This document shows positions 7,827 through 23,988 of a stretch of DNA of 64,000 nt, in pieces. Within the stretch, counting starts at the first letter, position 1, and each line of letters opens with the position of its first letter. Made by a program: the position numbers and the translations under genes. Below the pieces are notes generated by a model. It was not told where the DNA came from. It saw nothing but the letters and a program-made list of their open reading frames with translations, and ran no database searches. Source of the DNA: Candidatus Woesearchaeota archaeon (GTDB lineage Archaea > Nanobdellota > Nanobdellia > Woesearchaeales > JACJVW01); the NCBI GenBank assembly GCA_020637435.1, contig JACJVW010000001.1:433060-497059 (forward strand), written 5' to 3'.

Positions 7827-7859
7827 ACATTATTATACCCACATAATTTCTCCTTCATC

Positions 7860-8109
7860 TATGAGCAATAAATTTACAACAGGCAAAAAAATAGGCTCTG
7901 AGATGCTTGAAGATATACTCAATGATTTCAATCTTCGGCCCTTAAAACTTCCAAAAGAGATTCATGCGCAAAGATATTTCACTATGCTCGATAATTTTTA
8001 CATACCTGAATTTATGGGATTTGTCTACGGACTTTCCTATACCTCAGCTTGCCACCCTGTTGAAACATACAAATTTCTGACAAGAGACAAGAGTACCTCT
8101 CATATATAG
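7860..8109 (+). CDS. Small hypothetical protein (83 aa)
   Basis: Internal Met of track ORF 7714..8109 immediately after the rio1 stop. No recognisable motif. Confidence 0.25.
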
Positions 8110-8239
8110 CCAAACTCAATCAAAAAATCCAGAGACATTCTATGAGTACCCATCAATATTGATTTGTCCTTAAACGGGACCATCTTTTTTCTAAGACCAA
8201 ACCAAAAACTTTTTAAACATCTGAACCCCCAAATCAATC

Positions 8240-8465
8240 TGATTTTCAGAAATATATGTTAAAATTTAGAAGATCAATCAGAAATCAGAAATTTGGGCCC
8301 ATCAATGAAAAAGAATCTTCAGATTTACGAAAATACAATCTTAATTTCTAAAGAAATATCTGAGATTTATAGAAATAATCTGATTTTCAGAAATTTTAAC
8401 GATGATTCAGAATTTTGCGCAGATTACTCCTTAAATTCAGAGCAAAATTCTGAAATTCAGAAACA
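8240..8465. promoter_or_regulatory. Cluster of at least 5 exact TCAGAAAT octamers plus degenerate and inverted copies, upstream of the abrB-like and giant-gene operon
   Basis: TCAGAAAT occurs at 8246-8253, 8278-8285, 8285-8292 (tandem) and 8387-8394. Variants ttcagaatttt at 8406-8416, ttcagag from about 8447, inverted ttctgaa at 8449-8455 and ttcagaaac at 8456-8464 end at the ATG of the AbrB-like gene. Confidence 0.6.
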
Positions 8466-8755
8466 TGAAGAAGTATCCAAAAATAGTGCAATGTGACAAG
8501 CGAGGTCAGATAGTCATACCTAAAGACCTCCGAAATGAGCTCGGCATAGAAGAAGGCACTGGTTTTTGGATGTATGCAATCACCGATGAAGGTATTCTGC
8601 TCAAGAAGGTCGAAAACCCTGAGCTTGGGGAACACACCGACATGCTCCATGAGCTCAATGACAAAGCAGACAAGATAGATCTCTCACGTGAGAATCTTGG
8701 ACAGTCCATCGAGGAATACAAGAAGAAGAGGCAGGGCAACCTGGATGTAATATGA
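8465..8755 (+). CDS. AbrB/SpoVT/MazE-family swapped-hairpin DNA-binding protein (96 aa)
   Basis: KRGQIVIPKDLRNELGIEEGTGFWMY is the AbrB-type N-terminal beta-barrel motif, followed by an acidic C-terminal tail. Its stop overlaps the giant ORF start by 4 nt (ATGA at 8752-8755). Confidence 0.75.
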   Translation: MKKYPKIVQCDKRGQIVIPKDLRNELGIEEGTGFWMYAITDEGILLKKVENPELGEHTDMLHELNDKADKIDLSRENLGQSIEEYKKKRQGNLDVI

Positions 8756-11700
8756 GGGGGCGCACGATACTTGGTTGGTGTATGATACTTTTCGTGCTAG
8801 CTTTAAGCCTCAGCGCTTCTGCCCAGGAGCTTACTCACACCCAAGTCGAGATCGGCAAACCGGTCACCTGGAAGAAAGTCGTTTCAGACGTACCTGCAGA
8901 CGGCACGCTCAATGTCTATGTTGACAAAGATGCCCGGGACGTCAGAGTGGATGGAAGATCTGACATCACTATCAAAGAAGCTTCGATATGGGACACCTTC
9001 GTCCAAAGCTTTGGCTCAGTGACAGGTTTTGCAGTAAGCGAAGCAGGTACTGAGATCGAGTTTGAAGCGAAAGAAGGTGACGCATACACTATTGTCTACG
9101 AAACAGAAGCACCTAAAGTCTACGAATCACAAAAACAAAAGGACGATAAGCTCATCAAAGAGGTAACCATCTCCTCAGACTATCATTATACTGACATCCT
9201 TAGTTACACAGACATTCCGGAAGTGGAAGCAGAGCAAATCAAACTCTACCATAAACAGGGTGGCATCTTCTTCAAAAATAAAATAGACATCACTTCCGAT
9301 GAATCTTACCGGGTAGAATTCATGGATACCAACGGCAATGGACTTATTGACCGTGTAAAATGGGTAACGCCCCACCTTTCCACCCAGGAATTCGAAGTGG
9401 AAATCACAGTCCTTAACGTTCAGAGCTATCCGCTCATAGGTGGCAACTGGACTATCCGGTTTACTACCGCAGGTACCGCAGACCTCGCTATAAGTGCCTA
9501 CATGGGTACAACCTATGGTGAGACGCTGCCGGATGACCTGTGGCCTATTGAACTTCGTTGCGATGATACTCCGTTGGCCCCTATCTTCAACGGAACTCAT
9601 GTCGTCTATGAGGACTTCTCCTGTGATGGTGTCGCCTACCACACAGTGAAGGTCCTCACAGGCGGTAAACATTACCAGGAATTGACCTTCGGCGATGCGA
9701 CAGCGCATGCACAAAACGATGCGGGCACCGTCACGCTCTCATTCCACCATGCGGCAGGATGTAGTGGCCCCTCCACGATAACATCCTCCTCACGGGCGAA
9801 TGAGAGTGATAGTATTTACATCCTGGTTTCTTATTCGAATGATGAGAACGGCGCTGAGAATACGATAGTGGACATTACAGGCTATGTATCTGGCTGTTCT
9901 CTGGCTTCACCCGGTAATTGCTTCGGCGATGACACGCCTGCTGCGAGCACATCATCCTGCTTCCTAAGCAATTTCCCCATTCCAACAGGCCTGAGTGATT
10001 CTGAATCTGTTACAGTATCTGTCCAGAATAGCACTGGTTCCGTTGCAACAACATCCTCTACGCTCTATATCAATCATGCCCCAGGTGTCGCGGTCGCAAT
10101 CACCCCTGCAAGTCCCCTCATAGGTGAGCAGATCACTTGCACCGGAACCGTAACAGACACGGATGCAGGAGACTCTTTTACAGCAAGCTATCTCTTCGAT
10201 GTGATGGGTTCAATTGTCGACAGCGGCAGTGTGGTCTGTTCAGGAACAACCTGTACCGCCACCTGGACTTCCTCAGGGGTCAATGATGGCGACACCATAA
10301 CCTGCAATATGACGGCAATGGACAGTAATGGACTTACTAGTCCTCAGGTCGCGTCATCTGCTGCCACATTCACCACAATAAGCATCAGTCCAACTTCAGC
10401 AAGTATAGAACGTATGGGTACGCAGACCTTCACGGTCTCTGGTAGTACAGCAACTCCTTTTACCTGGAACCTTTCGGGAACTCCCGTGAATGGTTCAGCA
10501 TTCAATCCCGCAAACCCTACTACCTCGTCTGCGACAGTACAGGGACTGGAAGTGGGTTCCTATGTAGTTAATGTAACTGACAACAACGGTGCATGGACCA
10601 CAGCCACATTGACTGTCACTGACACGAACGCTCCAGCGCCTGCAACGAATGTTGTCGCGGCCGACACTCCTGGCGACCAGGGGGATAATATCACGATAAC
10701 CTGGAGCATCTCTACCGATGACGGCCAGGGAGACAATGATGTAGCCAACTATTCTGTCCTAAGGTCGACCAGCCCTACATCAGGATTTGCTGCCGTTTCT
10801 GGAGCGCTTCCCCCAGGCACAGAGATTTTTGTCGACACAACAGTCCTCCCTGATGTCAGCTATTATTACCGGGTCAGGACCATGGACATCAGTGGCAATT
10901 TTGTCGATTCTGATATCTCCGGACCTGTCAATCTCAACGGCCAGCCCATCATGCAGGAGATAATCTATTACCCGTTAAGTCCGTCTGCCCAGGATAATAT
11001 AACCTTTGTAGCATTCGCGACAGATACCGACAACGAGACGGTGACGATGAACTACACGGTAGAAGTCACTGCCTTTGACGGAGGTACTAACTATCAGGAA
11101 AGCGGAGAGGCCTGGTGCTTCTTCCTTGGTCACGGCATGAGTCAATATGGTACGACATATGCAGAGCCGACAACTGAATGTACGGTAACACTAGCATCCA
11201 GCCACTTCACCAAAGCGGACAAAGTGACTATCACTTTCACCCCTCATGACGGACAGGAGGCAGGAGACCCGCTCTCGCTAAATGGATTCATCGTTATCAA
11301 CAACAGCAGGCCAAACGCATCCAATGTATTTGTCTCGCCGATAAATCCTAACCAGTCCTCTGTGCTCAGCTGTAATTATACGTTCACCGACTTCGATGGA
11401 GACATGGAGAATACGTCCCAGGCTCGTTTCAGATGGTACATCAATAATGAAGGACTCAACGACTTTGTACTTGTGCCTGGCTACACCAGCCGGACAATTT
11501 CAGGAATCTTCGACAAAGACGACATTATCAAATGTGCAGTACAGGTCAAAGACATTGATTCCAGTTGGTTAAAACAACCTCTATACGCATCCGCATATGC
11601 TACATCAACAGAGATCACAATAAAAGACAATGCGATCCCTCAGATCATAGATTACTGGATCTCTGCAAATAACACTAACCCTGCGGCACCAGGAGATGAC

Positions 11701-14700
11701 ATCTACTTCAATGTAAGCTGGGTCGACTACGAAGACCCAAGCGACCAGGCTAGGATGTACGTCTGTGACGCATGGGAAGATATTGAGAATCAGTACGATG
11801 GTGGAACCTCTGAGATCTTCTTTGGTGATGATACAGCAAATGCTGATCAAGAAGTAAGACTCTATACGAACGAGACTGGCCAGTACGTCTACACCCTGGC
11901 AATCAAACCTACAAAATTCATCGAAAACTCCTTTACTACATACAGTCCAGGCTCCACCGTCACCGCAGGAGATGTCTTCGTAGGCTCAGCACTCCTCGAC
12001 TTCCCTCCTTATTACACTTATTATGATGCTGACCACAGCGACACATATACCCTCGGTGAGTCCATTATATGGGATAATCAGTCCATGGGAACGAACAAGA
12101 CATACAACGCGCAATACGACGTAGTCATCTACGGTGATGAAGTGGTTGATGGCAGTTCTCTAGTCAGGTTCAACGAGAGCAATATCCACACCTTTTATGA
12201 CTCAGACAGCAGCGGGACTTACACTACAGGAGATGACATCTACCTTGACAGCGGTGCAACCCCTAATCAGGTTGATGCAGGCGATGTAAGGGTAAGTATA
12301 GTCTCCAACCGGCCCTCTGCGGAGACACTTTCAACCTCCTTCATTTACGACATCATCGTCCGTGAAGTGGACAATATCGGTGATACGACCGGTCTAGTCA
12401 TAGCAAGGGACAATGACAATACCTTCACCCTTGGAAAATACAACTATTTTGTCCCGCAGTATAATGCTCAACCACTTCCTGGAAAATATCTCATGTTCAC
12501 CATCTGCATAGATGTTGATAACGACGATACTTGCGACTCAGATTCGGACAATTTCAATGATATGGTCTTTTTCAAAGCAGATCCCGCACCAGGAGCAGGT
12601 TATCAGGCGTACAATGGAACGGGCTCAGTGCACTACAACCCGGATATCAGGTTCAACTATGGTGCAAGCGAAAGCCCAGGTTGTGCGGGAGCAACCTACT
12701 GCAGCACTCCCAATTCTCCTCTCAACGATATTTCCTGCACCTATGAAGCGGTCTTCGAAAATTCGTGGAACAACACAGTCAATCTCAAGGTCTGTGATGA
12801 GCACGATGCTTGCTCTGTCAACAGAGTAGCAAACTTCTTTGTGAATCACATCCCTATAATTTCAGATCTTACCATAAACAGCAGTATAGACGGTGTCAAT
12901 ATTGACGCAGTCAATAATTTCAGCACTAGCAGGAACCTTATATGTAATTACACTGCTTCAGACAGTGACCCGCAAGGCAATACTATCGGCTTAAGCAGCG
13001 TCATCTGGTTTAAGAAAAGCCAGAGCGCAAGTGTCTTCCAGCGTGCGATAGTCCCAAACAGCACTTTACTCGCGAACAGTAATACCGAACCAGGAGACCA
13101 GTGGATCTGCCAGATCACGGTGCATGATGATTTTGATAATTCGCTAGGGACCAACTCATCTCCTGTAACGATCCTAAGTGCGCAGGGTGACGAACTGACC
13201 ATCCTATCAGTTTTTGATGATTCCTCCTTGACCGCACCTGTACTGTTGGATGAAGACGTTACCATCGAGGTCTCCTTCCTCTACACGGGAACCGATGATG
13301 TCAAAGTCTATGTCTGCAACTCTTCGTCCATAACCTCGGGTGGCTGCCTTGATCACACCTACGCAGCCACGGATTTCGTCTCGGACAACCCGATCAATGT
13401 AAGCTGGGAGGCAGATGCTCCTGGAACACACAGATACTACGTCAAGGTCTGTGATGAGTCATTCAGATGTTCAGCGGTGGTAGGGACGTCTACTGAATAC
13501 AATTACACCGTCAATCAGCGTCCTATTGTCAACTCAACGCTCCTTACGACGTATACTGGTTCGACCAACTACACAGACGCTGACCCCCTCAACTGTACCT
13601 ACATAGGCAACGACCAGGATAGCATAGGTACGGGACTAAACGCGACCTACACCTGGTTCCTCAGAAGATCAGGAGGGGCGTTCCAAAAGATTGCATTACC
13701 TCCGACAACCGCAACGATCGCAGAATCACAGACTATTCTCGGCGATGTATGGATCTGCCAGGTTGACCTTTCAGATGGTTACCATAGCGCGGATGCGCTC
13801 AACAGCAGCCCCGCATTCATTCAGAGCCTAAGTACGGGAATTATCGGCATAACTGATGTGAACGATACAGTAGGCAGTGTCGTTGAGCTCGGAGATTCCA
13901 TCGACATCGACGTCTACTGGCAGTCTGCTACCGGCGATAACGCAAAGGCATTTATCTGCAATTCCACGAGAGTGCTCGCAAGCGGTTGTCTTGATGGTAC
14001 CATTATGGAGACGAGTTATACCTCAGCAAATCCTATCTCTGCATCCATCACTCCGACAATAGGGGGGTTGCAGTATTATTATGCCATGGTCTGTGATACC
14101 TCCTGGAACTGCTCATATGTCCAAAGCTTTGACAGCAAAGGCAATAGGTTGAATTACACGGCAAACACCCCCCCTGTCATCGGATATGTTACCGTCAACA
14201 CGACTACTGACGGACTTACCCCGGACGGTCTGCAGAATTACACGGTGGACACACACCTGATCTGCAATTTCTCCATCTCGGACCCGGACATGCTTTCTGA
14301 ACCAAGTTTTGAGATTGCATGGTACAAAAATGGCCAGAAAGTAAATTTCCCTTCAGTCACTGCGATTTCAAAATGGAATACGCAGGGAGGCGAACTATGG
14401 AGTTGTGGGGTCACTCCTATAGACGAATACGGAACTTATCCGGAAATGATTTCACAAAGTGTATTCATCACGGGCATCTCTAATGAAATTGTAGTAGTTG
14501 AGAATATCACTGCTAACTACAATGAGAGCAACCCTCTACTCAATGGACAAGCTGTAACCTTCAACCTAAAGGCGATGAGCCTCAACAGCGTCTCCTGGTT
14601 CGCATACATATGTAATACCTCAAACATAGACGTCACAGGCTGCTGGGATGACCAATTCGCAACAATATCGACTGCAACAGAGGAATCCACAGCATCCTAC

Positions 14701-17700
14701 ACCACAGTCTACGAAGATCACGGAGTGATACCTTATTATGTACTGATCTGTGATACCACGTTCAACTGTTCACAGGTACAGGGAGTTGACACTGCCCTTA
14801 ATTTCACGGTTAACCATCGCCCAGTCCTTACTTATGTGCGGTTGAACACGACAGATCTTACATCAAACTTCACCAGTGACCGCAATCTGATCTGTCAGTT
14901 ATCTTACAATGACCCTTACAGCTACAACAATGGCTACAACATTTCATACACATGGTACAGGAATGGCATCCTGCAGGCATACCCTAGTAGCATGGATGTG
15001 CTCTCCAACACACAGACACAGACGGACGATGAGTGGTACTGTGAAGCTCAGGTCAGCGACGGCTATCATTCAAGTGATGTGGTTGCCGCGGCATTTGTCA
15101 ATATCAGTGACTACGCGCCAGGTTCCGTCTGGATAACGAACTTGACGACAAACAGTAATTCCAGCTCTTACCTCAGGTACCCTTCCAATGTTACCTTTAA
15201 TATTACCTGGAACTCGACAGAGATTCTTGATGTGCGGGCATTTATCTGCAGCAATAGCAGTATCGGCCCTTCTGGATGTCTCCAGACTACTATCGCCCAA
15301 AGCGGATACACCCGCAGTAATCCGATAGAATTGACCTACCTAACAACCAATAATGAATCAGGACCTACTGACTACTATGTGAAGCTCTGTGACACCTCCT
15401 TCAATTGTTCAGGAGTCGCAGGCATTAGTATACCTCAATACTACTACATCAATCAACCCCCTATTGAGACCGCTGTCTGGATGAACACGACAGACGGAAC
15501 AGACAATTTCACCAGTGACAGGAACATCATCTGTAGATATACTGCTATGGACCGGGACGATGTAAATGCGAGCGACCCACTTATACCTGAATATTATTGG
15601 TGGGTGGGATCTACCGATGACAATATGGAGTTGGTGGAAACAAGCACAAGCACACAAGTACTGACAAACAACAACTATGAACCTGGTTACTATGTACAAT
15701 GCGGCGTTCGCACTTCCGATGGGATGCACTTTGGAGACGGAACTTTCAGCCAGGCACAACAGATAAGCACCGAAGTAGTAGAAGGGATAGTTATCTCAAA
15801 TGTCACCCACAACTCGCCAACAGAGACGCCGGTGACCGAAGGCAACGTTATCCTATTCTCCATCGACTGGTACAGCAGCTACGGCCTTCCTGTAAGAGCA
15901 CACATCTGCAGCTCACCAGACTTCAACTACAGTGGCTGCTATAACACTACTCTTGCTGCATCAGGTGGTTTCTCAAGCACAAACCCGCTCATAGTAAGCA
16001 TGGCCACTAATGGATCGGAGCCGACCATACAGAACTACTGGGCAAGGATCTGTGACAACAGTTACAACTGTTCAGAGCCGTTCCCTGAAGCAGGAATAAA
16101 TCTGAATGTATCCGTCAACCACCGACCTAATGCGGTGAATGTGACTGTCAGACAATTTGATCAGTACAGTACTACGGGATTGCTCATCTGCAACTACTCT
16201 TTTAATGACACGGATATGGACCCGGAGAACGCAACTTTAGCTACATTCCTCTGGTACACAGTAACCAACAGCGTCAAATCCCTTATACCAGGACAGAACG
16301 AAAGGTTCCTCGAGGACGCGTTCAGTTATGGAGATGAGATAACCTGTAGCGCAAGAGTCGCAGACAACCATTCAGTCAGCGACAATCAGTTCAGAGATGC
16401 CAATAATACCATAAGATTCAGCGCGATACCACCTAAACCCGTCCTTTGGAATATGCCCTTTGCAGTATCTGCAGCAACAGGTAATAGGATGATAGGGTAT
16501 TTCGGTATACCTAACGTCAATTACTCAGTCCACCTGCGGCAGGAATTCAATGTGACAACGCCCGTCACCAACACAACCTCTACGGATAGCAGGTACTTCG
16601 GTTTCGCTTTCCCGGTCTACAAGGCTGCCAATAAATCTGCGTTCGTCATAGTTCACCGCGACGATCTTGACCTGTTCCAGACTGGAAGATACATCTCCTA
16701 CGACAACCATAACCGGACATACTTTGCACGATACAGGATAACAGGCAACGAAGATCTCTTCGACGATACTTACAAGGTATTTACTTCGCCTGCACTGGAG
16801 CACAATATTACCTCCTCGACCGCGATTTTCGTCTACAACAGTACCTATCCTTCAGGATGGTTCAATATGTCATTGCCATCCTTATTCGTAGGTGAAAATA
16901 CCATCAGGATCAGGGGACTGTCATCCTATGGCAATGGACCTTACCTGAATCAGACCCTCTACCTTGATCTGGAGAACCCGACCATAAACATATCCAAAAT
17001 AGGCAACTACAGTTTCAGCCACATGTCGACCATCTACTGGTCCGTCTATGACAATATCTCCCTTAAAGACATGCTCCTCCAGGTTTCTAACAGTTCAGAA
17101 ATAGTCAACTACACACTCTACGATTACAACTTCAATGACACTGACACTCAGATAGTCTGCGATGGCAATCTGACAGACCAGGACTGCCGGGTGGAGATCT
17201 ACCTCAATAATAATACCCTGCACAACCTCACATTCACAGTCACTGACAGTTCAGGAAGAAGCACGACTGAAGTACGCTATGACTACGTCGTCAATACCTC
17301 AGTGCTCCCGGTCATACTTGTCTACCAGGGTTTCATAGATGATGCTCTTGACGAGCACATCCCCGCGACCATCGCTACCAATACAACATTCACCGCAAAC
17401 TGGACCTCTGATGCACATGCCATAACACGTTACTACGAAGTCAAGATAGTAGAATATGAAGGAGACCTTCTTGTCAAAGACATGACCAACTGGACTGAAG
17501 TTGGCAAAGAGAGAAATTGGACTGCGACCGTGCCTGCACGAAACCAGTATATCTACAAATTCCATGTAAGGTCTCTATACCAGGATCTAAGCTACAGCGA
17601 AGAATTTGTCAGTGAGGGCATGTTTTATTTCGTGGATGAAGCTCCGGTCTGCATTGATTGTGTCAGATTTGTAGGCACAGATAACGGCGGGCAGACATTC

Positions 17701-20700
17701 ACAAATTCACCAGACACCATGAAAGTGGCTTGGAACTTCACAAGCGAAGCTCCTATAACTCGCTACAGGTACGCGATAGGAAAAGTAAAGTACCCTTCGC
17801 CTGGCTACAACTCTCATGCGTACAGCAACGACTATCTCAATGATGAGATAACGATAATTAAGACCATGACCGAAGGTGATCAGTATTACGCCGCTGTCAG
17901 AGCGATGAACGAGAATGGCATCTGGAGCCCCTGGTCAATAACCTTGGGCAATCTTACCGTTGACTTGACAGCTCCACAGGGTGGTTCAATAACATACCCA
18001 ACAGGATTGGTCTCTACAAACTTCTCGGTATCCTACAACGACGGGTATGACGACATCAGCGGAATTAAGTCAAGAGTACTCTATCGTGCTACCGCTCAGT
18101 TGATCAATGGGCAGTGCCAGGGATTGTATGTCTACTACCCTGTCAACAGTACCATCATACCGGGGTCAGGAAGCTACACACAGGTCATAGGCAATGGTCT
18201 TTGTTATCGGTACAAGTACATGGTCACAGACTATGTGAACAACACAGCATCATACTTCAAGGGAGAACCGTACGATGTGAAGACAGACACTACCCCTCCC
18301 AATAGTTTCAGTGTCGTCCTGAACAATGGATATTACATCACCTCATCATCAACCTTCACCGTTGACTGGACAGACAGCGCAGATGCACAGTCAGGACTCT
18401 CTCATTACAGCTACATCATCACTGAGGATGACAAGCAGATAGGCAACTGGACTAACATTACAGTTGGCAACACAACAGTGACATTTGCTCAGGTAACCCT
18501 GCCAGATCCGAGGCACCAGGCAAGCTACAGAGTTATCGTAGTTGCTCACAGCAGGAACGGTCTGACGACCCAAGTCACAAGCAATGCTGTCGCATACATA
18601 GATATTGCACCTCCATCCCCTCTTGAGCTGCTGCAGTTTGAGAATCAGACAAATATCACTACTGATAATCTTGTTGATCAGGTGAACAACAATATGACCA
18701 ATATCACCTTCCGGGGTGAGAATGGTATCAGTTGTGTCGCTTCCGTCTACCCCATAGACTATGAGATGTACGATGTATCAAAAACATACCTGACTAACTG
18801 CTCAACGGCAAACGACAATGTAACATGCAGATTCAATACGACAGAGACAGCATACTACACAAGATACATCGTCTGCAGTGACTACGCAGGCAATATGCAA
18901 TTTGTAGATGATGCTCTCAATATTACTTGGAAAGTCGATTTCATAGGTCCTGACATCAATATGACGACCAGTATACAGGGCGAAGTGCTTGGCGAGATGA
19001 TTCTGTTCAACCTTAGTATTACAGACCTCACCGCTGTCGACACAGTCATCTATGAGATAGTAAACGCGACCAGCATGTCGCAGATATTTGACTCAGGTAA
19101 ACTGACCGGTGATGAGATTTACAGCCTACTGTGGAACAGCACTGAATACTTCGCAGGTCAGACCGAACTGCTTACTATCATAATTACAGCAAATGACACA
19201 AATGGTTTCATCCAGAAATTGTTCACAAACTTCACAGTCGATAACACAAGACCTGTCATCAATATTGTCAGTCCTAATCTCAACAACAGATTCTTCAACC
19301 AGAATTTCACGCTTGATGTGCGGGTAAGAAATCCCTTCTACAACACCTCGCTTGGGATCTACAGTATGAATGGCACAAAGATGCATAGCCTGTATAATGT
19401 AAGCAATGTGCTCAGATCAAGCTATGATTATGCAGGACTTGTCGCAACAGACAGCTGGCCTGATGGAAACTACACCATAAGGGTTAATGCTTCAGGAGTA
19501 AGCAATTCCATGAATAAGAGTCTGACCATATATCTTGACAGGACCGCACCATCTCACCTCCCTATTGTCAATCCAAAAGGTCCCGTCTACAATGATGCCT
19601 CAGTGCTCCTTTGGTCGTATTGGCCTATAGAATACAACTTTGTGGCTAACACCTGCGACATAGAAGAAGTACTTATCCAGCACAATGCTACCGGCACCAT
19701 GACCAACTATACAGTAGGGGCTACAGGCTACAATTTCAGTGTAATCATACCGCCTAGCCAGTTAGACAATCACGAGCAGATAGCATGGCTTGTGCATGCA
19801 AAAGATTTCAGCGGAAACTGGAACACAACTGAGCTAAAGACATTCACAGTATCCAACAGGGCTCCCTATCTGTCTCTGGTAATACCTGACCAGGACTGGC
19901 CCGTCAACATCAACAATTCTCCTGTTGAAGCAGCAATACATCTTATCGACCCCGACCAGGACACTCTTACTTTCAGCATCATCCAGCTTCCCGAGAAATC
20001 AAAGATATATGATGAATTGAACAATCCTTCGACCATAAGTGCGAATGACGGTGAATATGATGCGGTAACCTTCCTTGTGGCAAAGAACGCCAACGGAACT
20101 GCGCTTGAAAAGGCGACGACCAACATGCTTGGCAACCCTACATTTGAAGAGGGCAATATGACCTATTTGAATTCCTGGCAGGTCGTAGGTGAACCGCAGA
20201 AGAACTGGACGCTCAATATTGAAGGTAACTACAGTGTTATTGTCAATAGGAATCACTACTACATGCAGACTGTGCCGGTAACCCCTAACACAGAATACAC
20301 CTTGAGCGCGACCATGAGGTCAGTCAGTGGTACTACTCACGGCAGATTGCATGTTGATTGGCTCGATAGCACCCAGCAATACCTCGGTACCTGCCTCATC
20401 TGTGGGCTAGGTAATACTTGTGCCTTTACGCCTGAATTAACCGTGACACCGGAAAGAAAGTCTGCAAATATGACCAGTCCTTCCGGTGCGGTGTACGCTA
20501 GGATCTATGTTGACGCACAGAACAGCAGTTATACTGTAGTAGATGATATGCAATTCGAGAAAAGTAGCTTCGCTACATCCTTCGTCAATGGATCCAGAGC
20601 TGCAACATATATCGAGTATGATATTAGTTCGCACTACAATGATTCAGCGGGAACGATAGGATTCTGGTTCAGACCTTTCTGGAATACCTCATCAGATGAA

Positions 20701-23700
20701 GACCATCTGCTGCTGCAGATGTCAGCGGATTTCGCATTGTATGCTACCAAAGAAGAGAATGACTACATGCTCAGGCTAGGCGATTCCTCTACGTATACAG
20801 AAATGAATATTACTGGCTGGAATACTGATGACTGGCACTACCTGACTATAACTTATGCATCGACCATATCATGGCTCTATGTTGACGGAAATCTTATAGG
20901 AAGTTCATACAGCGATCCGAACAGTGTTACTACGTTGTATCTTGGTAAAGCCGCATCAGATTCCATCTACGCTAACGGAATATTCGACGATCTCATCTTC
21001 ATAGGAAAGACCTATAACGCGACACAGGTCCTACAGCTCAACACGAGCGGACCTGTGCTTTCATCTCCTAACATCAATTATACGATGAACTCCAGTAACG
21101 CAGTCATTTTCTATTCCTTCGACTACAACTGGTCCGGCAGTGAAGCCGCGTACATAACTGCAGATGATGGTTACGCTATTGCGGGAAGCAACGTCTTTGG
21201 ACTGACCGTCAATCCGCTCAATATAGCACCCGTCATAGCCCCTATTCCAAACCAGACTACTTGGGACAATCAGACGTGGTCCTATACGATAAACGCGACA
21301 GACGCAGACAACCATCCTCTCACCTACGTGGTAAATGCGAGCTGGATCGAGATCAACGAGAGCGGATACATGACATTCAATCAGTCACCTCTACTTAGAG
21401 GCCACTATGGTTTGAAGCTGACGGTCTGCGATAACCAGGATGAGATCAATAGCTGTGTCAATCAGACTTTTAATCTCACGATACTCTATACAGACATGGA
21501 CAGCGATGGAATCTCAGACACCTTTGATTTCATCACAGGCAATGAGACAGGAATAGTCACAAATATACCGATCACGATGATAATCGTGAACTCCAGCTAT
21601 TTCGACAATTCGACTAACACCACTTTCTTCCTTCCTGGTTCGACCAATATTAGCCAGTATTACGGAGGACTGGTGCACATTACTCTCAAGAACAGTAGCC
21701 ATGACTTTGTGGACTTTGATTTCATACTCAATGCAACATCCATCCTTGATCTCGGCAGCATAGTTATTGAAGTGAATAATGCGAACATGAGCGCGATAAG
21801 CGTAAGTGGCCTGATACTTCCAGTAAATATGACCAAGGCAGTACATCTGCAGAAGTATAACACTACCATCATGTCTGTATGCATCAAAGATAATGCGACC
21901 ACCAATATATCAGCAATATCAGTCAACTGCACCGCAGCCGATGAGATTCTCGTGCCTTGCGACAACCAGAACTATTCAGGTTACTTCTGCGAAGACAGGA
22001 ATACCACCTACAGAGTCTCTGGTCTCAACCATTCCGCAGTAAAAGAGCAGGCTGGCTGCACAGACAAAGACGGAGACGGCTACTTCTTTGGAAGTCTGTG
22101 CATAAGTTCGCCGTTGGATTGTCAGGATACTGATCAGAACAGATACCCTGGAGCTACTGATATCTGTGGAAACGGAATCGATGAAGATTGTTCAGGCGCT
22201 GACAAGAAGTGCTCAAGTAGCAGTTCAGGCGGAGGAGGGGGCGGAAGCCGGGGCGGAAGCTCAGGTTTCATCTCAAATAAGAAACAGTGCGAAGATGGCA
22301 AAGACAATGATGGAGACGGTCTTATCGACTTGCAGGACAACGGTTGCACAAAAGAGACAGATGACGATGAGAGCGACGAATGTGTCGAGAACTGGGTCTG
22401 TGGAAACTGGAATCTTTGTGTCGACGGAAAACAGACCAGATCCTGCTATGACACAAGTGAATGCAATACCTACTATGTCAGGCCGCACATGCTGCAGAGC
22501 TGTGAATACACGCCAAAAGTGATTGAGAAAGAGGTCACCTCATGTACTGATTATTCACAGAACTATGGAGAGACAGACGTAGACTGTGGCGGAGACTGCA
22601 AAGCATGCGGACTAGGCAAGAAATGCCTCTCAAATATTGACTGCGACTCTGGTTATTGTGATAGCCTGACCAAAATATGTTCAGAGCTGCTTACGGAACC
22701 TGTCCTGCCTACCTGTTCAGACATGATACAAAACCAAGGGGAAGAAGATGTTGATTGTGGTGGACCATGTGATTCCTGCAAGACTGAAAGTGCATTCTTC
22801 CAGTGGATACTCATGTTCGTCGTAGTGCTCGGTCTTCTCGGTATAGTCGCGGGAATCGCTCTGGCCGGACTGGAAAGCCGCCCAAGAAAAGAAGAACCCT
22901 TCACTGCTGAATCCCTCAAAGCGGCAGCTGAGGATACGGAAGGAAGGATATTCCTTGAATACTACAAAGGCACAGACAAAGAAAAGATCCTTCGCATAGG
23001 CAAAGCCCTTGGCATACCGAAGAAGAGAGTTGAAGACATACTGCACCTCTCCGAGTATGCCCTGCTCATGCTCAAAAGAGGTATAAGTAAAGATGTTATT
23101 GAGAGCAAACTGCTTTCAAGAGGCTGGCCAAAAGAACTCATCGAGCTCTTCTTCATCCACAACTTCATATTCAATGACCTTATGAAGAATAAGTCTATCA
23201 TCTACAAGAAGATAGAAGACAAACGTGCTGAAGGAAAGAGTGATGAGCTGATCGCCATCGAACTTAAAGAGGAAGGGTGGCCGGAAGACGTGGTCACCAT
23301 GGCTTTACTCTTTGAAGAGCATAAAGACACTCCAAAGGAACAGCCTGCGGAAGACCTGGTAGCGGATGAAATGAGCATCCTGCTGGAATTGCATAAGGGA
23401 GCTACACCGGCATCGATCAAATCGATGCTTGCTGAAAAGGGCTGGAAACCCGAAATCATCGACTCTCTTGCAAAACTTGAAGAATCCATAAGGTTGCCGC
23501 TCTCCCGCGGTACAGAACCGGATGAGATAATCAGACAGTTCACCTCCCAGGGTTGGCCTATGGAACTCATCGAGTTTGAGATACTCCTGCAGGATATCGA
23601 AATACGTGTACTTCATGCGATGAAGAACAATATTCCTGTTGAGCAGCTCATCCAGAGTCTGAAAAAAGAAGGTTATCCGGAGAATATGGTCAGGGAAGTC

Positions 23701-23988
23701 CTACAAGCCCATAGAGACACGGACCTGCAGCAGCCAAAACAGGACGAACATATTGTCGCGCTCGAACAGATCTTCCGACTCCTTAAGGAAGGGAAGACCG
23801 CTCAGGAGATTTCTGACTACGCCCAGAAGAAACGATGGCCGAAGAACATTATGTACCAGGCAATAAACACTGAGAAGTATATCAAAGAGATGCGATCGAA
23901 GGGAAATTCAGACGAGAGCATCAGGTTTGAGCTAAAGAAGATGGGTTGGCCCGAAGACCTCAGCGAAAAACTTCTAAGACAGGTCTGA
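8752..23988 (+). CDS. Giant secreted surface protein (5078 aa). It has a signal peptide, an N-terminal module shared with giant 2, Ig-like domains, about 7 tandem ~215-aa Cys-containing repeats, a CBM-like domain, a LamG/ConA-like domain, a cadherin-like domain, MopE-type Cys-rich metal-binding motifs, a Gly/Ser linker, one TM helix, and a cytoplasmic tail of 7 GWP repeats
   Basis: Single uninterrupted ORF. The signal peptide is MRGRTILGWCMILFVLALSLSASA. Repeated ICNYTASDSDP...GDQWICQITVHDD units alternate with YYVKVCDESFRCSAV units between roughly 11.3 and 16.2 kb. GNPTFEEGNMTYLNSWQVVG is CBM-like. WHYLTITYASTISWLYVDGNLIG...FDDLIFIG is LamG-like. IAPVIAPIPNQTTWDNQTWSYTINATDADNHPLTYVV is a cadherin/dystroglycan-type domain. 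CQDTDQNRYPGATDICGNGIDEDCSG is MopE-like. A SSSSGGGGGGSRGGSSG linker precedes the TM helix FFQWILMFVVVLGLLGIVAGIALAGL and a 380-aa cytoplasmic repeat tail. N-x-S/T sequons are extremely frequent. Confidence 0.9.
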   Translation: MRGRTILGWCMILFVLALSLSASAQELTHTQVEIGKPVTWKKVVSDVPADGTLNVYVDKDARDVRVDGRSDITIKEASIWDTFVQSFGSVTGFAVSEAGTEIEFEAKEGDAYTIVYETEAPKVYESQKQKDDKLIKEVTISSDYHYTDILSYTDIPEVEAEQIKLYHKQGGIFFKNKIDITSDESYRVEFMDTNGNGLIDRVKWVTPHLSTQEFEVEITVLNVQSYPLIGGNWTIRFTTAGTADLAISAYMGTTYGETLPDDLWPIELRCDDTPLAPIFNGTHVVYEDFSCDGVAYHTVKVLTGGKHYQELTFGDATAHAQNDAGTVTLSFHHAAGCSGPSTITSSSRANESDSIYILVSYSNDENGAENTIVDITGYVSGCSLASPGNCFGDDTPAASTSSCFLSNFPIPTGLSDSESVTVSVQNSTGSVATTSSTLYINHAPGVAVAITPASPLIGEQITCTGTVTDTDAGDSFTASYLFDVMGSIVDSGSVVCSGTTCTATWTSSGVNDGDTITCNMTAMDSNGLTSPQVASSAATFTTISISPTSASIERMGTQTFTVSGSTATPFTWNLSGTPVNGSAFNPANPTTSSATVQGLEVGSYVVNVTDNNGAWTTATLTVTDTNAPAPATNVVAADTPGDQGDNITITWSISTDDGQGDNDVANYSVLRSTSPTSGFAAVSGALPPGTEIFVDTTVLPDVSYYYRVRTMDISGNFVDSDISGPVNLNGQPIMQEIIYYPLSPSAQDNITFVAFATDTDNETVTMNYTVEVTAFDGGTNYQESGEAWCFFLGHGMSQYGTTYAEPTTECTVTLASSHFTKADKVTITFTPHDGQEAGDPLSLNGFIVINNSRPNASNVFVSPINPNQSSVLSCNYTFTDFDGDMENTSQARFRWYINNEGLNDFVLVPGYTSRTISGIFDKDDIIKCAVQVKDIDSSWLKQPLYASAYATSTEITIKDNAIPQIIDYWISANNTNPAAPGDDIYFNVSWVDYEDPSDQARMYVCDAWEDIENQYDGGTSEIFFGDDTANADQEVRLYTNETGQYVYTLAIKPTKFIENSFTTYSPGSTVTAGDVFVGSALLDFPPYYTYYDADHSDTYTLGESIIWDNQSMGTNKTYNAQYDVVIYGDEVVDGSSLVRFNESNIHTFYDSDSSGTYTTGDDIYLDSGATPNQVDAGDVRVSIVSNRPSAETLSTSFIYDIIVREVDNIGDTTGLVIARDNDNTFTLGKYNYFVPQYNAQPLPGKYLMFTICIDVDNDDTCDSDSDNFNDMVFFKADPAPGAGYQAYNGTGSVHYNPDIRFNYGASESPGCAGATYCSTPNSPLNDISCTYEAVFENSWNNTVNLKVCDEHDACSVNRVANFFVNHIPIISDLTINSSIDGVNIDAVNNFSTSRNLICNYTASDSDPQGNTIGLSSVIWFKKSQSASVFQRAIVPNSTLLANSNTEPGDQWICQITVHDDFDNSLGTNSSPVTILSAQGDELTILSVFDDSSLTAPVLLDEDVTIEVSFLYTGTDDVKVYVCNSSSITSGGCLDHTYAATDFVSDNPINVSWEADAPGTHRYYVKVCDESFRCSAVVGTSTEYNYTVNQRPIVNSTLLTTYTGSTNYTDADPLNCTYIGNDQDSIGTGLNATYTWFLRRSGGAFQKIALPPTTATIAESQTILGDVWICQVDLSDGYHSADALNSSPAFIQSLSTGIIGITDVNDTVGSVVELGDSIDIDVYWQSATGDNAKAFICNSTRVLASGCLDGTIMETSYTSANPISASITPTIGGLQYYYAMVCDTSWNCSYVQSFDSKGNRLNYTANTPPVIGYVTVNTTTDGLTPDGLQNYTVDTHLICNFSISDPDMLSEPSFEIAWYKNGQKVNFPSVTAISKWNTQGGELWSCGVTPIDEYGTYPEMISQSVFITGISNEIVVVENITANYNESNPLLNGQAVTFNLKAMSLNSVSWFAYICNTSNIDVTGCWDDQFATISTATEESTASYTTVYEDHGVIPYYVLICDTTFNCSQVQGVDTALNFTVNHRPVLTYVRLNTTDLTSNFTSDRNLICQLSYNDPYSYNNGYNISYTWYRNGILQAYPSSMDVLSNTQTQTDDEWYCEAQVSDGYHSSDVVAAAFVNISDYAPGSVWITNLTTNSNSSSYLRYPSNVTFNITWNSTEILDVRAFICSNSSIGPSGCLQTTIAQSGYTRSNPIELTYLTTNNESGPTDYYVKLCDTSFNCSGVAGISIPQYYYINQPPIETAVWMNTTDGTDNFTSDRNIICRYTAMDRDDVNASDPLIPEYYWWVGSTDDNMELVETSTSTQVLTNNNYEPGYYVQCGVRTSDGMHFGDGTFSQAQQISTEVVEGIVISNVTHNSPTETPVTEGNVILFSIDWYSSYGLPVRAHICSSPDFNYSGCYNTTLAASGGFSSTNPLIVSMATNGSEPTIQNYWARICDNSYNCSEPFPEAGINLNVSVNHRPNAVNVTVRQFDQYSTTGLLICNYSFNDTDMDPENATLATFLWYTVTNSVKSLIPGQNERFLEDAFSYGDEITCSARVADNHSVSDNQFRDANNTIRFSAIPPKPVLWNMPFAVSAATGNRMIGYFGIPNVNYSVHLRQEFNVTTPVTNTTSTDSRYFGFAFPVYKAANKSAFVIVHRDDLDLFQTGRYISYDNHNRTYFARYRITGNEDLFDDTYKVFTSPALEHNITSSTAIFVYNSTYPSGWFNMSLPSLFVGENTIRIRGLSSYGNGPYLNQTLYLDLENPTINISKIGNYSFSHMSTIYWSVYDNISLKDMLLQVSNSSEIVNYTLYDYNFNDTDTQIVCDGNLTDQDCRVEIYLNNNTLHNLTFTVTDSSGRSTTEVRYDYVVNTSVLPVILVYQGFIDDALDEHIPATIATNTTFTANWTSDAHAITRYYEVKIVEYEGDLLVKDMTNWTEVGKERNWTATVPARNQYIYKFHVRSLYQDLSYSEEFVSEGMFYFVDEAPVCIDCVRFVGTDNGGQTFTNSPDTMKVAWNFTSEAPITRYRYAIGKVKYPSPGYNSHAYSNDYLNDEITIIKTMTEGDQYYAAVRAMNENGIWSPWSITLGNLTVDLTAPQGGSITYPTGLVSTNFSVSYNDGYDDISGIKSRVLYRATAQLINGQCQGLYVYYPVNSTIIPGSGSYTQVIGNGLCYRYKYMVTDYVNNTASYFKGEPYDVKTDTTPPNSFSVVLNNGYYITSSSTFTVDWTDSADAQSGLSHYSYIITEDDKQIGNWTNITVGNTTVTFAQVTLPDPRHQASYRVIVVAHSRNGLTTQVTSNAVAYIDIAPPSPLELLQFENQTNITTDNLVDQVNNNMTNITFRGENGISCVASVYPIDYEMYDVSKTYLTNCSTANDNVTCRFNTTETAYYTRYIVCSDYAGNMQFVDDALNITWKVDFIGPDINMTTSIQGEVLGEMILFNLSITDLTAVDTVIYEIVNATSMSQIFDSGKLTGDEIYSLLWNSTEYFAGQTELLTIIITANDTNGFIQKLFTNFTVDNTRPVINIVSPNLNNRFFNQNFTLDVRVRNPFYNTSLGIYSMNGTKMHSLYNVSNVLRSSYDYAGLVATDSWPDGNYTIRVNASGVSNSMNKSLTIYLDRTAPSHLPIVNPKGPVYNDASVLLWSYWPIEYNFVANTCDIEEVLIQHNATGTMTNYTVGATGYNFSVIIPPSQLDNHEQIAWLVHAKDFSGNWNTTELKTFTVSNRAPYLSLVIPDQDWPVNINNSPVEAAIHLIDPDQDTLTFSIIQLPEKSKIYDELNNPSTISANDGEYDAVTFLVAKNANGTALEKATTNMLGNPTFEEGNMTYLNSWQVVGEPQKNWTLNIEGNYSVIVNRNHYYMQTVPVTPNTEYTLSATMRSVSGTTHGRLHVDWLDSTQQYLGTCLICGLGNTCAFTPELTVTPERKSANMTSPSGAVYARIYVDAQNSSYTVVDDMQFEKSSFATSFVNGSRAATYIEYDISSHYNDSAGTIGFWFRPFWNTSSDEDHLLLQMSADFALYATKEENDYMLRLGDSSTYTEMNITGWNTDDWHYLTITYASTISWLYVDGNLIGSSYSDPNSVTTLYLGKAASDSIYANGIFDDLIFIGKTYNATQVLQLNTSGPVLSSPNINYTMNSSNAVIFYSFDYNWSGSEAAYITADDGYAIAGSNVFGLTVNPLNIAPVIAPIPNQTTWDNQTWSYTINATDADNHPLTYVVNASWIEINESGYMTFNQSPLLRGHYGLKLTVCDNQDEINSCVNQTFNLTILYTDMDSDGISDTFDFITGNETGIVTNIPITMIIVNSSYFDNSTNTTFFLPGSTNISQYYGGLVHITLKNSSHDFVDFDFILNATSILDLGSIVIEVNNANMSAISVSGLILPVNMTKAVHLQKYNTTIMSVCIKDNATTNISAISVNCTAADEILVPCDNQNYSGYFCEDRNTTYRVSGLNHSAVKEQAGCTDKDGDGYFFGSLCISSPLDCQDTDQNRYPGATDICGNGIDEDCSGADKKCSSSSSGGGGGGSRGGSSGFISNKKQCEDGKDNDGDGLIDLQDNGCTKETDDDESDECVENWVCGNWNLCVDGKQTRSCYDTSECNTYYVRPHMLQSCEYTPKVIEKEVTSCTDYSQNYGETDVDCGGDCKACGLGKKCLSNIDCDSGYCDSLTKICSELLTEPVLPTCSDMIQNQGEEDVDCGGPCDSCKTESAFFQWILMFVVVLGLLGIVAGIALAGLESRPRKEEPFTAESLKAAAEDTEGRIFLEYYKGTDKEKILRIGKALGIPKKRVEDILHLSEYALLMLKRGISKDVIESKLLSRGWPKELIELFFIHNFIFNDLMKNKSIIYKKIEDKRAEGKSDELIAIELKEEGWPEDVVTMALLFEEHKDTPKEQPAEDLVADEMSILLELHKGATPASIKSMLAEKGWKPEIIDSLAKLEESIRLPLSRGTEPDEIIRQFTSQGWPMELIEFEILLQDIEIRVLHAMKNNIPVEQLIQSLKKEGYPENMVREVLQAHRDTDLQQPKQDEHIVALEQIFRLLKEGKTAQEISDYAQKKRWPKNIMYQAINTEKYIKEMRSKGNSDESIRFELKKMGWPEDLSEKLLRQV

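Follow-up and report, generated by a model that had tools for sequence, protein, structure and literature searches.

We analysed a 64-kb stretch of DNA, called the window here, in which a gene for a small AbrB-like protein directly precedes a gene for a giant surface protein and follows a putative promoter that carries a cluster of short palindromes. The locus comprises the following features.

8202..8218, + strand: putative archaeal core promoter, read from the sequence, with an A-rich BRE-like element at 8202-8209 and a TATA-like box, TTTTAAAC, at 8211-8218
8220..8461, unstranded: putative operator array on a 10/20-bp lattice, with 13 TCTGA/TCAGA half-sites, some of them joined in three full palindromes
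8238..8250, unstranded: putative operator O1, TCTGATTTTCAGA, an exact palindrome over the predicted transcription start
8278..8292, + strand: tandem half-sites, TCAGAAATCAGAAAT, 40 bp from the O1 centre
8379..8391, unstranded: putative operator O2, TCTGATTTTCAGA, 141 bp from O1
8449..8461, unstranded: putative operator O3, TCTGAAATTCAGA, ending 3 nt ahead of the start codon
8465..8755, + strand: AbrB-like gene, 96 aa, with an ATG start and a TGA stop at 8753-8755
8752..8755, + strand: ATGA stop/start overlap, a putative translational coupling junction; the same overlap is found in 42 of 60 orthologous loci
8752..23988, + strand: open reading frame of 5078 aa for a giant surface protein with type-I membrane topology (signal peptide and TM helix)
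22882..23985, + strand: cytoplasmic tail of the giant protein, with about eight repeats of G.s.eeI...L...GWP.e.I, weakly RecX-HTH-like

The 96-aa protein was compared with profile and structure collections. It matched Pfam PF04014 MazE_antitoxin over residues 11-51 (30.9 bits against a curated cut-off of 24.7, E = 2.6e-7) and the NCBIfam AbrB domain TIGR01439 (39.6 bits against a curated cut-off of 28.3, E = 3e-10), and a family profile search of the PDB returned SpoVT-N (2ro5, E = 2.3e-5) and AbrB-N (1z0r and 2k1n, E about 1e-4). Only residues 7-50 were aligned in that search, in which residues 51-96 had no PDB match. An AF2 monomer model of low confidence (pLDDT 61), used for secondary structure and a weak fold check only, gave a beta-beta-alpha-beta-beta arrangement followed by two helices, with strands at 9-10, 16-17, 34-40 and 43-49 and a helix at 20-26. 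The top Foldseek matches of this model all had the AbrB fold (AbrB, SpoVT, a Sulfolobus AbrB-like protein and MazE), at E values of only 0.02-0.5. The predicted N-terminal swapped-hairpin DNA-binding domain covers roughly residues 5-50, and the C-terminal domain has helices at 58-66 and 75-88 and a conserved GNLDVI end. By the PF04014, TIGR01439 and SpoVT/AbrB matches, the 96-aa protein is a member of the AbrB/MazE swapped-hairpin family, as the initial annotation had proposed. We found 496 homologues at E ≤ 1e-3; among the 120 of these that were listed, nearly all were 95-98 aa long and 55-82% identical. Two other assignments were rejected: the HgcAB-associated AbrB-like protein HgcC (NF040962) scored 30.2 bits against an equivalog cut-off of 70 and aligned over residues 7-36 only, and the NCBIfam match PRK08577 fell far under its cut-off. 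PADLOC returned no match for the AbrB-like protein, and a scan of viral contigs with the family alignment found no relatives, so that nothing there points to a viral or mobile origin.

The ATG at 8752 is the earliest possible start in the frame of the giant gene and leads into a typical signal peptide, MRGRTILGWCMILFVLALSLSASA. The predicted protein is laid out as a signal peptide (aa 1-25), an ectodomain of about 4650 aa, a TM helix (aa 4682-4706, nt 22795-22869) and a cytoplasmic tail (aa 4711-5078). Its Pfam matches were confined to Laminin_G_3, CBM_4_9 and MopE domains, with nothing at E ≤ 0.01 in the N-terminal 2500 aa. The tail repeats matched RecX_HTH1 with a summed E of 6e-7, no single stretch being significant. 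In a PADLOC search of the tail and the first 1000 aa, nothing toxin-like appeared; the lone match was a weak one in the tail (CARF3--CARF, E = 0.003), and a defence-system reading was dropped. The product had been described earlier as a giant adhesin and not a toxin. A secreted, membrane-anchored protein with no toxin domain in the regions scanned agrees with the second part of this description, whereas the word adhesin reflects domain content alone. The window holds a second giant gene, at which the same system was ruled out, as palindromes are absent there and the gene upstream is a short integrase-family ORF.

The TGA of the regulator gene (8753-8755) and the ATG of the giant gene (8752) share the ATGA at 8752-8755, which confirms that the small gene ends 4 nt into the start of the large one. 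Other gene pairs of the window overlap in the same way (26822/26825 and 35602/35605), so the overlap alone is ordinary and no more than chance; the signal is its conservation across species. The five homologues that were checked first all had the 4-nt overlap, with a gene of 1993 to >6500 aa, in differing neighbourhoods. The conservation set consisted of 61 orthologous loci from Woesearchaeota and Nanoarchaeota genomes, and most partner counts were made over 60. Regulator identity across these loci was 55-69%, a partner gene lay at -3 to +30 nt from the regulator in 52/60 loci, an N-terminal signal peptide or membrane anchor was present in 51/60 partners, and the ATGA overlap was missing in 18/60 loci. 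Partners ranged in size from 216 to >6500 aa, and 34 of them, counted across the 61-locus set, exceeded 1000 aa. Over alignments of >1000 aa, the giant protein and its counterparts in L005, L006 and L007 were 30-38% identical, and the giant partners compared were at best 30-38% identical to it or to one another. Domains of the homologous partners were FG-GAP, PKD, Cadherin and Big; a GWP-type tail motif also ended the partners in L001, L005 and L039, and many partners had no such tail. Conservation of the pair in related genomes had been suggested as a check of the initial annotation, and it was borne out: the pair and its 4-nt overlap are kept across dozens of species, and the pairing persists in >50 species-level genomes while the flanking genes vary. 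Six loci (L037, L045, L047, L052, L058 and L068) retain the regulator and the operators with no surface-protein gene downstream, so the regulator may have a role that extends beyond the giant gene or can be separated from it. The regulator family appears to be vertically conserved across an archaeal order.

In the window, 19 nt separate the TATA-like box from the first palindrome downstream of it. L007, L008, L012, L017, L065 and L066 share this arrangement and have canonical cgaaaca-TTTATATA boxes, whereas the box of the window is non-canonical. The predicted start implies a 5' leader of about 220 nt, which is long for an archaeon. The cluster of TCAGAAAT noted earlier in this region is real (four exact copies in 8246-8394; 11 in the window against 3.9 expected), and TCAGAAAT is half of a 13-bp palindrome, TCTGA-N3-TCAGA. 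Between 8200 and 8464 there are 13 half-sites against 0.66 expected (Poisson P ~4e-13), the maximum for any other 265-nt stretch being 4, and the implied site centres in 8220..8461 are nearly all in phase modulo 10. Three N3 palindromes, all at this promoter, and one N4 copy at 36732 were found in the 64-kb window, against 0.32 expected for the N3-4 pattern. A further TATA-like element, TTTATAGA, at 8366-8373, 5 nt upstream of O2, could be a second promoter. A reading as phase variation by DNA inversion was rejected, as the promoter has no long inverted repeats on either side and every site is itself a palindrome on the 20-bp lattice.

Across the orthologous loci, exact TCTGA-N3-TCAGA was present in 67 copies in 20.3 kb of upstream DNA and in 4 copies in 970 kb of background, an approximately 800-fold enrichment at promoters, and the density of PWM matches was 6.1 per kb in upstream DNA, compared with 0.015 per kb outside it. 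When one mismatch was allowed, 57/58 loci had a site. The distance between adjacent sites was within 1 bp of a multiple of 20 in 50 of 54 cases (P ~1e-36) and within 1 bp of a multiple of 10 in 53 of 54. The first site followed the TATA box by 6-10 nt in 26 loci and by 16-20 nt in 16, a bimodal distribution, and archaeal repressors act at sites in this TATA-proximal position. Many loci also had a palindrome or a TCAGA-N3-TCAGA repeat 13-40 nt ahead of the start codon. The palindrome is sharply defined and, in the 64-kb window and the ~970 kb of related individual loci covered, confined to the regulator's own promoter. These results support TCTGA-N3-TCAGA as a putative conserved palindromic operator array over the core promoter.

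We consider it likely that the 96-aa protein is an AbrB-type DNA-binding autoregulator whose gene and the giant surface-protein gene make up a single conserved two-gene operon in Woesearchaeota. The locus is best read as an operon that represses itself, built like a toxin-antitoxin system but with a surface protein as its cargo; in it the small protein is most likely a dedicated self-regulating repressor of costly surface proteins. Transcription would start about 20 nt downstream of the BRE/TATA element. Dimers or tetramers of the AbrB-like protein would occupy the 13-bp palindromes TCTGA-W3-TCAGA, the first of them either right on the start site or in the interval that separates it from the TATA box, and more copies and half-sites would follow on a ~20-bp lattice (two helical turns), usually ending no more than a few tens of nt short of the start codon. 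Cooperative filling of one DNA face would then block RNA polymerase recruitment and repress the operon. We infer binding of the motif by the 96-aa protein from sequence, and it is site position only that suggests repression, and not activation, upon binding. The two genes are predicted to be co-transcribed and translationally coupled: ribosomes ending the regulator at its overlapping stop would re-initiate on the giant gene, so that regulator output would track giant-gene expression and provide negative feedback on a very costly product. The layout would be that of a type II toxin-antitoxin locus with the toxin slot taken by a secreted, membrane-anchored surface protein. The initial annotation had suggested a dedicated switch for surface-protein expression; the operator array over the core promoter speaks for the dedicated control, whereas the geometry of the sites points to negative feedback repression rather than a bistable switch.

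The palindromes might instead be a real operator bound by another factor encoded elsewhere, with the AbrB-like protein a co-transcribed passenger, for example a chromatin or nucleoid protein. The Sulfolobus AbrB-like proteins 5itj and 5itm, deposited as 'histone-like protein', would fit such a role, as would the persistence of the regulator without a surface gene in six loci. At those six loci, however, the operators accompany the AbrB gene and not the surface gene. The motif and the AbrB gene occur together in 57 of the 58 loci, with the motif essentially absent from the surrounding 970 kb, and wherever the motif occurs, the predicted DNA-binding core D-x-RGQIVIPKD-x-R shows essentially no variation. 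L057 is the sole orthologue with a change in the invariant lysine (K20I) and also the sole one without an operator. A G33A clade carries variant half-sites (Fisher P = 2.6e-5, confounded by shared ancestry), and the co-variation between protein and motif consists of this one clade and that one locus. Palindromes of the same geometry also stand at the promoters of related antitoxins: the outgroup homologues closest to the family are AbrB antitoxins paired with PIN_3 or ParE toxins (28-45% identity), with GTAAGA-N3-TCTTAC palindromes adjoining their own start codons, and a bacterial AbrB-PIN_3 pair has TCAGA/TCTGA arrays. We regard binding by another factor as unlikely and favour recognition of the array by the 96-aa protein itself.

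These outgroup relatives are genuine AbrB-PIN and AbrB-ParE antitoxins, so the analogy with antitoxins drawn in the initial annotation fits. It also bears on a second alternative, in which the small protein would serve mainly as an antitoxin, immunity factor or escort that binds the giant protein, for example through the RecX-like repeats of its cytoplasmic tail or on the nascent chain, and would bind DNA only secondarily. The locus shares with AbrB-type type II antitoxins (VapB-like/PIN_3, AbrB-ParE and MazE) a GQIVIPKD(I/V)R core and a helical C-terminal tail, a small upstream gene with a 4-7-nt overlap into its downstream neighbour, and, adjoining its own start codon, a palindrome of 13-15 bp that has inner GA/TC and a 3-bp spacer; autorepression by the antitoxin is the textbook mechanism of such loci. 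The 370-aa cytoplasmic tail of the giant protein would also be within reach of a cytoplasmic protein. Of the hallmarks of a type II system, the upstream overlapping gene and the palindrome in its own promoter are present here, and a small cytoplasmic toxin (PIN, MazF, ParE or Doc) downstream is absent: the downstream product is a secreted surface protein of 216 to >6500 aa, whereas toxins of these systems have about 90-140 aa. The half-site is TCTGA rather than the GTAAGA of the antitoxins, with several operators on a 20-bp lattice rather than one, and toxin-antitoxin loci are usually patchy and mobile, unlike a vertically conserved regulator family. Further evidence argues against action on the giant protein. 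The scanned regions contain no toxin or defence domain, and the partners differ widely in length, many of them without the GWP tail. The 48-aa orthologues in L065 and L066 consist of the N-domain only and still keep both operators and the giant partner in the absence of the C-terminal domain, and orphan regulators exist. Immunity genes of polymorphic toxins, moreover, normally lie downstream and not upstream. Action of this kind seems to us quite improbable.

A third alternative is action at the RNA level, in which short UCUGA...UCAGA hairpins in the long 5' leader, and not a DNA operator, would govern stability or translation. A 5-bp hairpin is possible at each palindrome, one site usually lies near the start codon, and the leader of the window folds somewhat better than shuffled sequences (z = -2.1; 7/200 shuffles as good), which is a weak signal and one that the repeated complementary half-sites predict. 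However, the first site often lies 6-10 nt past the TATA box, which places it upstream of the transcript. The common variants TCTTAtttTCAGA and the direct repeat TCAGAaatTCAGA break complementarity without compensation, the sequence being conserved and not the pairing, and a spacing quantised at 20 bp is a property of the DNA helix. A scan of 7800-8900 against Rfam at E ≤ 1 gave only a chance snoRNA match (E = 0.91) and no known RNA element. Control through leader hairpins is, in our judgement, very improbable. Ordinary adjacency without meaning could appeal to the 4-nt overlaps of other window gene pairs and to the very large size of the PF04014 family, both ATGA overlaps and AbrB-family genes being common, but it is scarcely credible for a pair kept in that many species-level genomes with varied flanks and such a strongly enriched promoter motif.

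The preferred reading, an AbrB-type autorepressor in an operon with its surface-protein gene, was set against known systems. The best sequence and fold matches, over residues 7-50, were to the AbrB/SpoVT N-domain of B. subtilis (1z0r, 2k1n, 1yfb, 2ro5 and 9a4b), and the modelled AbrB chain 9a4b_A also has 96 residues. AbrB is a tetrameric protein that regulates its own gene and combines an N-terminal swapped-hairpin DNA-binding domain with a multimerisation domain of about 45 aa at the C-terminus; it is monocistronic and controls a large regulon through loosely defined sites. The C-terminal half of the present protein has no detectable similarity to that of AbrB and does not class as an AbrB-C homologue. 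In contrast to the global AbrB regulon, one sharp palindrome is found here, essentially only at the regulator's own promoter within the window and the ~970 kb, and the gene lies in an operon with a surface-protein gene in an archaeal (DPANN) lineage. The Sulfolobus Sso7c4-type proteins (5itj, 5itm and 2l66) and C68 and C56 of SSV/pSSVx are likewise archaeal, small and of the AbrB fold, but the similarity is weak (E ~0.2) and they have only about 50 aa; their database entries call them histone-like or viral/plasmid proteins, and neither a specific operator array nor a coupled surface-protein gene goes with them. A functional analogy, the transcriptional control of very large surface proteins, exists with MgrA, which controls giant staphylococcal surface proteins (PMC6548404), and with Fis and c-di-GMP, which control LapA (PMC9180339). 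Both are bacterial systems of unrelated regulator families, in which the regulator is encoded outside the operon of the surface protein and translational coupling is absent.

A full-text literature search of incomplete coverage returned no published account of an AbrB-giant surface-protein pairing, and the literature found to mention both DPANN and AbrB concerned ordinary antitoxins. Most Woesearchaeota and other DPANN archaea have yet to be cultivated; they are tiny and probably depend on a host. Their giant surface proteins are prime candidates for cell-cell contact, and to our knowledge nothing is known of how these proteins are controlled. A bolder extension, which we hold to be a long shot, is that an antitoxin was domesticated into a lineage-wide master regulator of DPANN host-contact proteins and retains the feedback mode of a toxin-antitoxin system. 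Its C-terminal helices would be titrated by the RecX-like GWP tail of the giant protein, and promoter occupancy would report the amount of surface protein that is correctly inserted or engaged, forming an outside-in signalling loop. At the level of the operon, the locus provides a concrete, widely conserved candidate regulator-operator pair, namely the 96-aa protein and the 13-bp palindrome that recurs on a 20-bp lattice across the core promoter, and the motif offers a search handle for surface-protein operons in metagenomes. The giant cargo gene occupies about 2% of a small genome, and the operon logic of toxin-antitoxin loci, with a small autoregulator first, an overlapping cargo gene and promoter palindromes, would here be reused for a cargo that is not a toxin.

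The window belongs to a DPANN archaeon of the Woesearchaeota lineage, and the features considered here are as follows.

7119-7826, neighbouring archaeal RIO1 kinase gene
8211-8218, TATA-like box TTTTAAAC, followed by 19 nt and then palindrome O1
8238-8250, 8379-8391 and 8449-8461, palindromes O1, O2 and O3 (putative operators)
8465-8755, + strand, AbrB-like regulator gene, 96 aa, TGA stop at 8753-8755
8752-23988, + strand, giant gene, 5078 aa
Giant protein aa 1-25, signal peptide
Giant protein ectodomain, about 4650 aa, rich in Thr/Ser/Asn/Asp, with 101 Cys, 175 N-X-S/T sequons, and Laminin_G_3, CBM_4_9 and MopE-type domains
Giant protein aa 4682-4706, single transmembrane helix
Giant protein aa 4711-5078 (window 22882-23985), cytoplasmic tail of 370 aa with about eight 'GWP' repeats
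24563-25183, neighbouring gene for the universal archaeal KH protein arCOG04150

The 96-aa protein was 100% identical to the NCBI entry 'AbrB/MazE/SpoVT family DNA-binding domain-containing protein [Candidatus Woesearchaeota archaeon]' and exceeded the curated thresholds of both PF04014 and TIGR01439. By these sequence criteria it belongs to the AbrB/MazE/SpoVT superfamily, and the initial annotation had described it correctly as a swapped-hairpin AbrB/MazE-type protein. The family profile matched SpoVT and AbrB N-domains, and a low-confidence AF2 model (pLDDT 61) showed a beta-beta-alpha-beta-beta fold with two C-terminal helices, its top Foldseek matches all being AbrB-fold proteins. There were 496 homologues at E<=1e-3; among the 120 listed, nearly all were 95-98 aa long and 55-82% identical over their full length, and those named came from Woesearchaeota/Nanoarchaeota. 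Residues 1-48 were nearly invariant across homologues, the DNA-binding core D-x-RGQIVIPKD-x-R was essentially invariant, and the C-terminal signature Y-KK-K-GNLDVI was kept. In AbrB, the C-terminal domain serves oligomerisation; the two-helix domain here probably mediates oligomerisation or else senses a signal, and it is dispensable in one clade with 48-aa orthologues.

The regulator TGA overlaps the ATG at 8752, the first start possible in the giant frame, which is followed by the signal peptide; the 4-nt ATGA overlap of the two genes was thus confirmed. By itself this overlap is unremarkable, because other gene pairs in the window overlap likewise. Conservation of the pair, named in the initial annotation as a check, was borne out across related loci with differing flanks. 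All five homologues on long contigs, which were checked first, showed a 4-nt overlap into the next gene (1993, >3334, 3293, 2352 and >3334 aa), flanked respectively by MCM; pyrBI/pyrE/pyrF; RIO1...KH, as in the window; unknown genes; and TopoVI/LAGLIDADG. A scan with one genome per species yielded 58 more orthologous loci, and pair statistics were calculated over 61 loci. The ATGA overlap was present in 42/60, the next gene lay at -3 to +30 nt in 52/60, and the partner N-terminus carried a hydrophobic signal or anchor in 51/60, with a type II anchor in one more. Partners exceeded 1000 aa in 34 loci, many being cut off by the 10-kb flank, and the 22 complete partners below 1000 aa were mostly smaller secreted proteins, some in small clusters. 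Several giant partners were homologous: those of the window, L005, L006 and L007 were 30-38% identical over extended regions, and that of L001 about 25%, a conservation far below that of the regulator. The gene pair is virtually certain to be real and conserved.

The signal peptide, transmembrane helix and domains provide good support for the partner being a surface protein, and homologous partners contained FG-GAP, PKD, Cadherin, Big and He_PIG domains. In the regions scanned, neither a toxin nor a defence domain turned up. The initial annotation had called the partner a giant adhesin, not a toxin; the surface protein and the lack of a toxin domain in the scanned regions stood, and its domain content suggests that it may be an adhesin. 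The tail repeats (35-45 aa, G.s.eeI...L...GWP.e.I) were weakly RecX three-helix-like (RecX_HTH1 summed E 6e-7), and the tail could be a docking platform. The GWP motif is likewise present at the end of the L001 and L005 partner proteins and of the L039 mini-partner (257 aa). A second giant gene (ATG 47008, region 46451-64000, at least 5660 aa), also with a signal peptide, runs off the window end. It is preceded by a 185-aa Phage_integrase-family ORF (46451-47008; Pfam E 1e-13) with a 1-nt TGATG overlap and by a Shine-Dalgarno-like stretch, GGAGGGGGTG, and no TCTGA-N3-TCAGA sites were found at this gene. As a small gene overlaps each giant gene, both window giants are coupled to an upstream DNA-binding-type gene, the families being different.

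Several loci departed from the common layout. In L027, L031 and L034, an AlbA_2-like gene was inserted at the regulator/partner junction; it encodes about 460 aa directly after the regulator and is AlbA_2/Schlafen-like by its N-terminal motif. Beside it, L027 retained a 47-aa relic of the giant protein, from its N-terminus and signal peptide, suggesting that a mobile element disrupted the partner gene. In six loci, a non-coding hairpin element and then a TrmI-like gene came after the regulator, and the surface gene was missing. In L037, L047, L052 and L068, 1-3 copies of this conserved element (GTTCTTTTTAAA...TTAAAAAGAAC, then CATTCG.ATTCCGCC, then the TrmI-like methyltransferase gene) replaced the surface gene right after the AbrB stop; candidate explanations for the element are a small RNA, a MITE and a deletion scar. 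The RIO1 and arCOG04150 KH genes were adjacent in many Woesearchaeota loci (L027, L029, L041, L020, L022), and the 15.5-kb AbrB-giant module sits between them in the window and in L005/L012, suggesting that the module was inserted into this conserved pair long ago. In L008-L010 and L025, RIO1 lay just upstream of the module, and the KH gene was not detected within the stretch fetched. An 82-aa ORF (7861-8109) between RIO1 and the operator region had no Pfam/NCBIfam match; none of the related loci contained a counterpart, and the ORF is possibly spurious. Among the Woesearchaeota-type contigs (L008, L011, L013, L047 and others), many were titled 'uncultured Methanosarcinales archaeon' and one 'Alphaproteobacteria bacterium'; the MAGs concerned have probably been mislabelled or mis-binned.

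The upstream TCAGAAAT cluster reported in the initial annotation proved to consist of half-sites of a conserved palindrome array. TCAGAAAT forms the right-hand half-site of TCTGA-N3-TCAGA, a 13-bp palindrome whose extended consensus reads wwwT-TCTGA-WWW-TCAGA-Awww, and 13 half-sites (ten besides the palindromes) occurred in 265 nt upstream of the regulator, compared to 0.66 expected. Within 64 kb, exact N3 palindromes occurred only at 8238, 8379 and 8449, against an expectation of 0.32 for the N3-4 pattern. Over 58 loci, 67 exact palindromes were found in 20.3 kb of upstream sequence compared to 4 in 970 kb elsewhere, an about 800-fold enrichment, the upstream region being limited to 350 nt and one of the four background copies being a promoter site just outside that limit. 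With up to one mismatch allowed, 57/58 loci had one site or more. At L047 position 12610, a rare exact palindrome lies outside the AbrB promoter, intergenic, 2.6 kb downstream of the regulator and beside a TATA-like box; it could mark a second regulated promoter.

Adjacent-site centre distances were 20/21, 40/41, 60/61, 79/80, 100-102, 120/121, 140/141 and 160 bp; 50 of 54 deviated by no more than 1 bp from a multiple of 20 (P about 1e-36, uniform model), and 53 of 54 met the same tolerance for multiples of 10, indicating that the sites share one side of the helix. A consensus BRE/TATA (cgaaaca-TTTATATA or TTTAAATA) preceded the first site in 44/60 loci, at 6-10 nt in 26 and 16-20 nt in 16, the window belonging to the second class. 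Archaeal TATA boxes are centred near -26, so the first site would lie between TATA and the start site or on the start site, where bound archaeal repressors block RNA polymerase recruitment. The start codon usually had a further site nearby, in many cases no more than about 40 nt away, and O3 ends 3 nt ahead of the regulator ATG. The motif is very likely a protein-binding DNA operator.

Judging from sequence, we consider it quite likely that the AbrB-like protein itself binds the palindrome. Motif and AbrB gene occurred together in 57/58 loci, the motif being essentially confined to the AbrB promoter, and where the surface gene was missing (six loci), the regulator still had its operators. L065 and L066, whose 48-aa regulators comprise the N-domain only, kept the TATA-plus-19-nt operator and the start-proximal operator, with the giant gene 11-18 nt downstream, indicating that the module core is N-domain, operator and surface gene. 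K20I, a change in the otherwise invariant IPKD motif, was unique to the L057 regulator (6676-6966), which was also the only orthologue without a palindromic operator; its upstream region had just separated half-sites. A G33A clade carried the variant half-sites TCTTAyttTCAGA and TCAGAaatTCAGA (Fisher P 2.6e-5, confounded by shared ancestry). The nearest outgroup homologues (28-45% identity) were antitoxins with downstream PIN_3 or ParE toxin genes, and GTAAGA-N3-TCTTAC palindromes of the same geometry and inner GA/TC lay beside their own start codons. AbrB-type antitoxins typically autorepress via such palindromes. In the bacterial outgroup locus L081 (Selenomonadales bacterium), an array, TCAGAaaaTCAGAaatTCTGAtttTCTGA, precedes the antitoxin gene of an AbrB-PIN_3 toxin-antitoxin (TA) pair upstream of 9992; it has the TCAGA/TCTGA half-sites of the archaeal family in a different arrangement. 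Binding of the motif by another factor is unlikely.

A TA-like or chaperone-like protein-protein pair as the primary function of the module is improbable: no toxin domain was found in the regions scanned, the partners are highly variable, and tail-less orthologues and orphan regulators exist. Palindrome repeats acting as RNA hairpins are very improbable, as some sites lie upstream of the transcript, variants are non-compensatory, spacing is quantised at 20 bp, there is no Rfam match and the leader fold reached only z = -2.1. Coincidental adjacency is scarcely credible, being contradicted by conservation.

An autorepressed bicistronic operon is a reasonably likely overall model. AbrB-like oligomers would occupy the phased operators, which extend from the core promoter across the leader, and we hold with moderate confidence that the effect of putative operator occupancy is repression. 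Termination-reinitiation at the ATGA would tie giant-gene translation to that of the regulator, the net outcome being negative feedback on the giant gene, which makes up roughly 2% of a genome that, judged by its 782-kb contig, is probably only about 1 Mb.

Assignment to AbrB sensu stricto was rejected (no C-domain homology, no global degenerate regulon, gene in an operon). A TA system was likewise rejected, as the toxin that defines one was absent from the regions scanned; the module would nonetheless work like the autoregulating part of such an operon. A full-text literature search of incomplete coverage returned no description of the AbrB/surface-gene pairing or the motif, which are provisionally regarded as newly described; the protein family and regulatory logic are already familiar. 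The module offers a regulator-operator pair that is conserved, sharply defined and amenable to tests in vitro, and it concerns the genes that are least understood in this uncultivated lineage of archaea.
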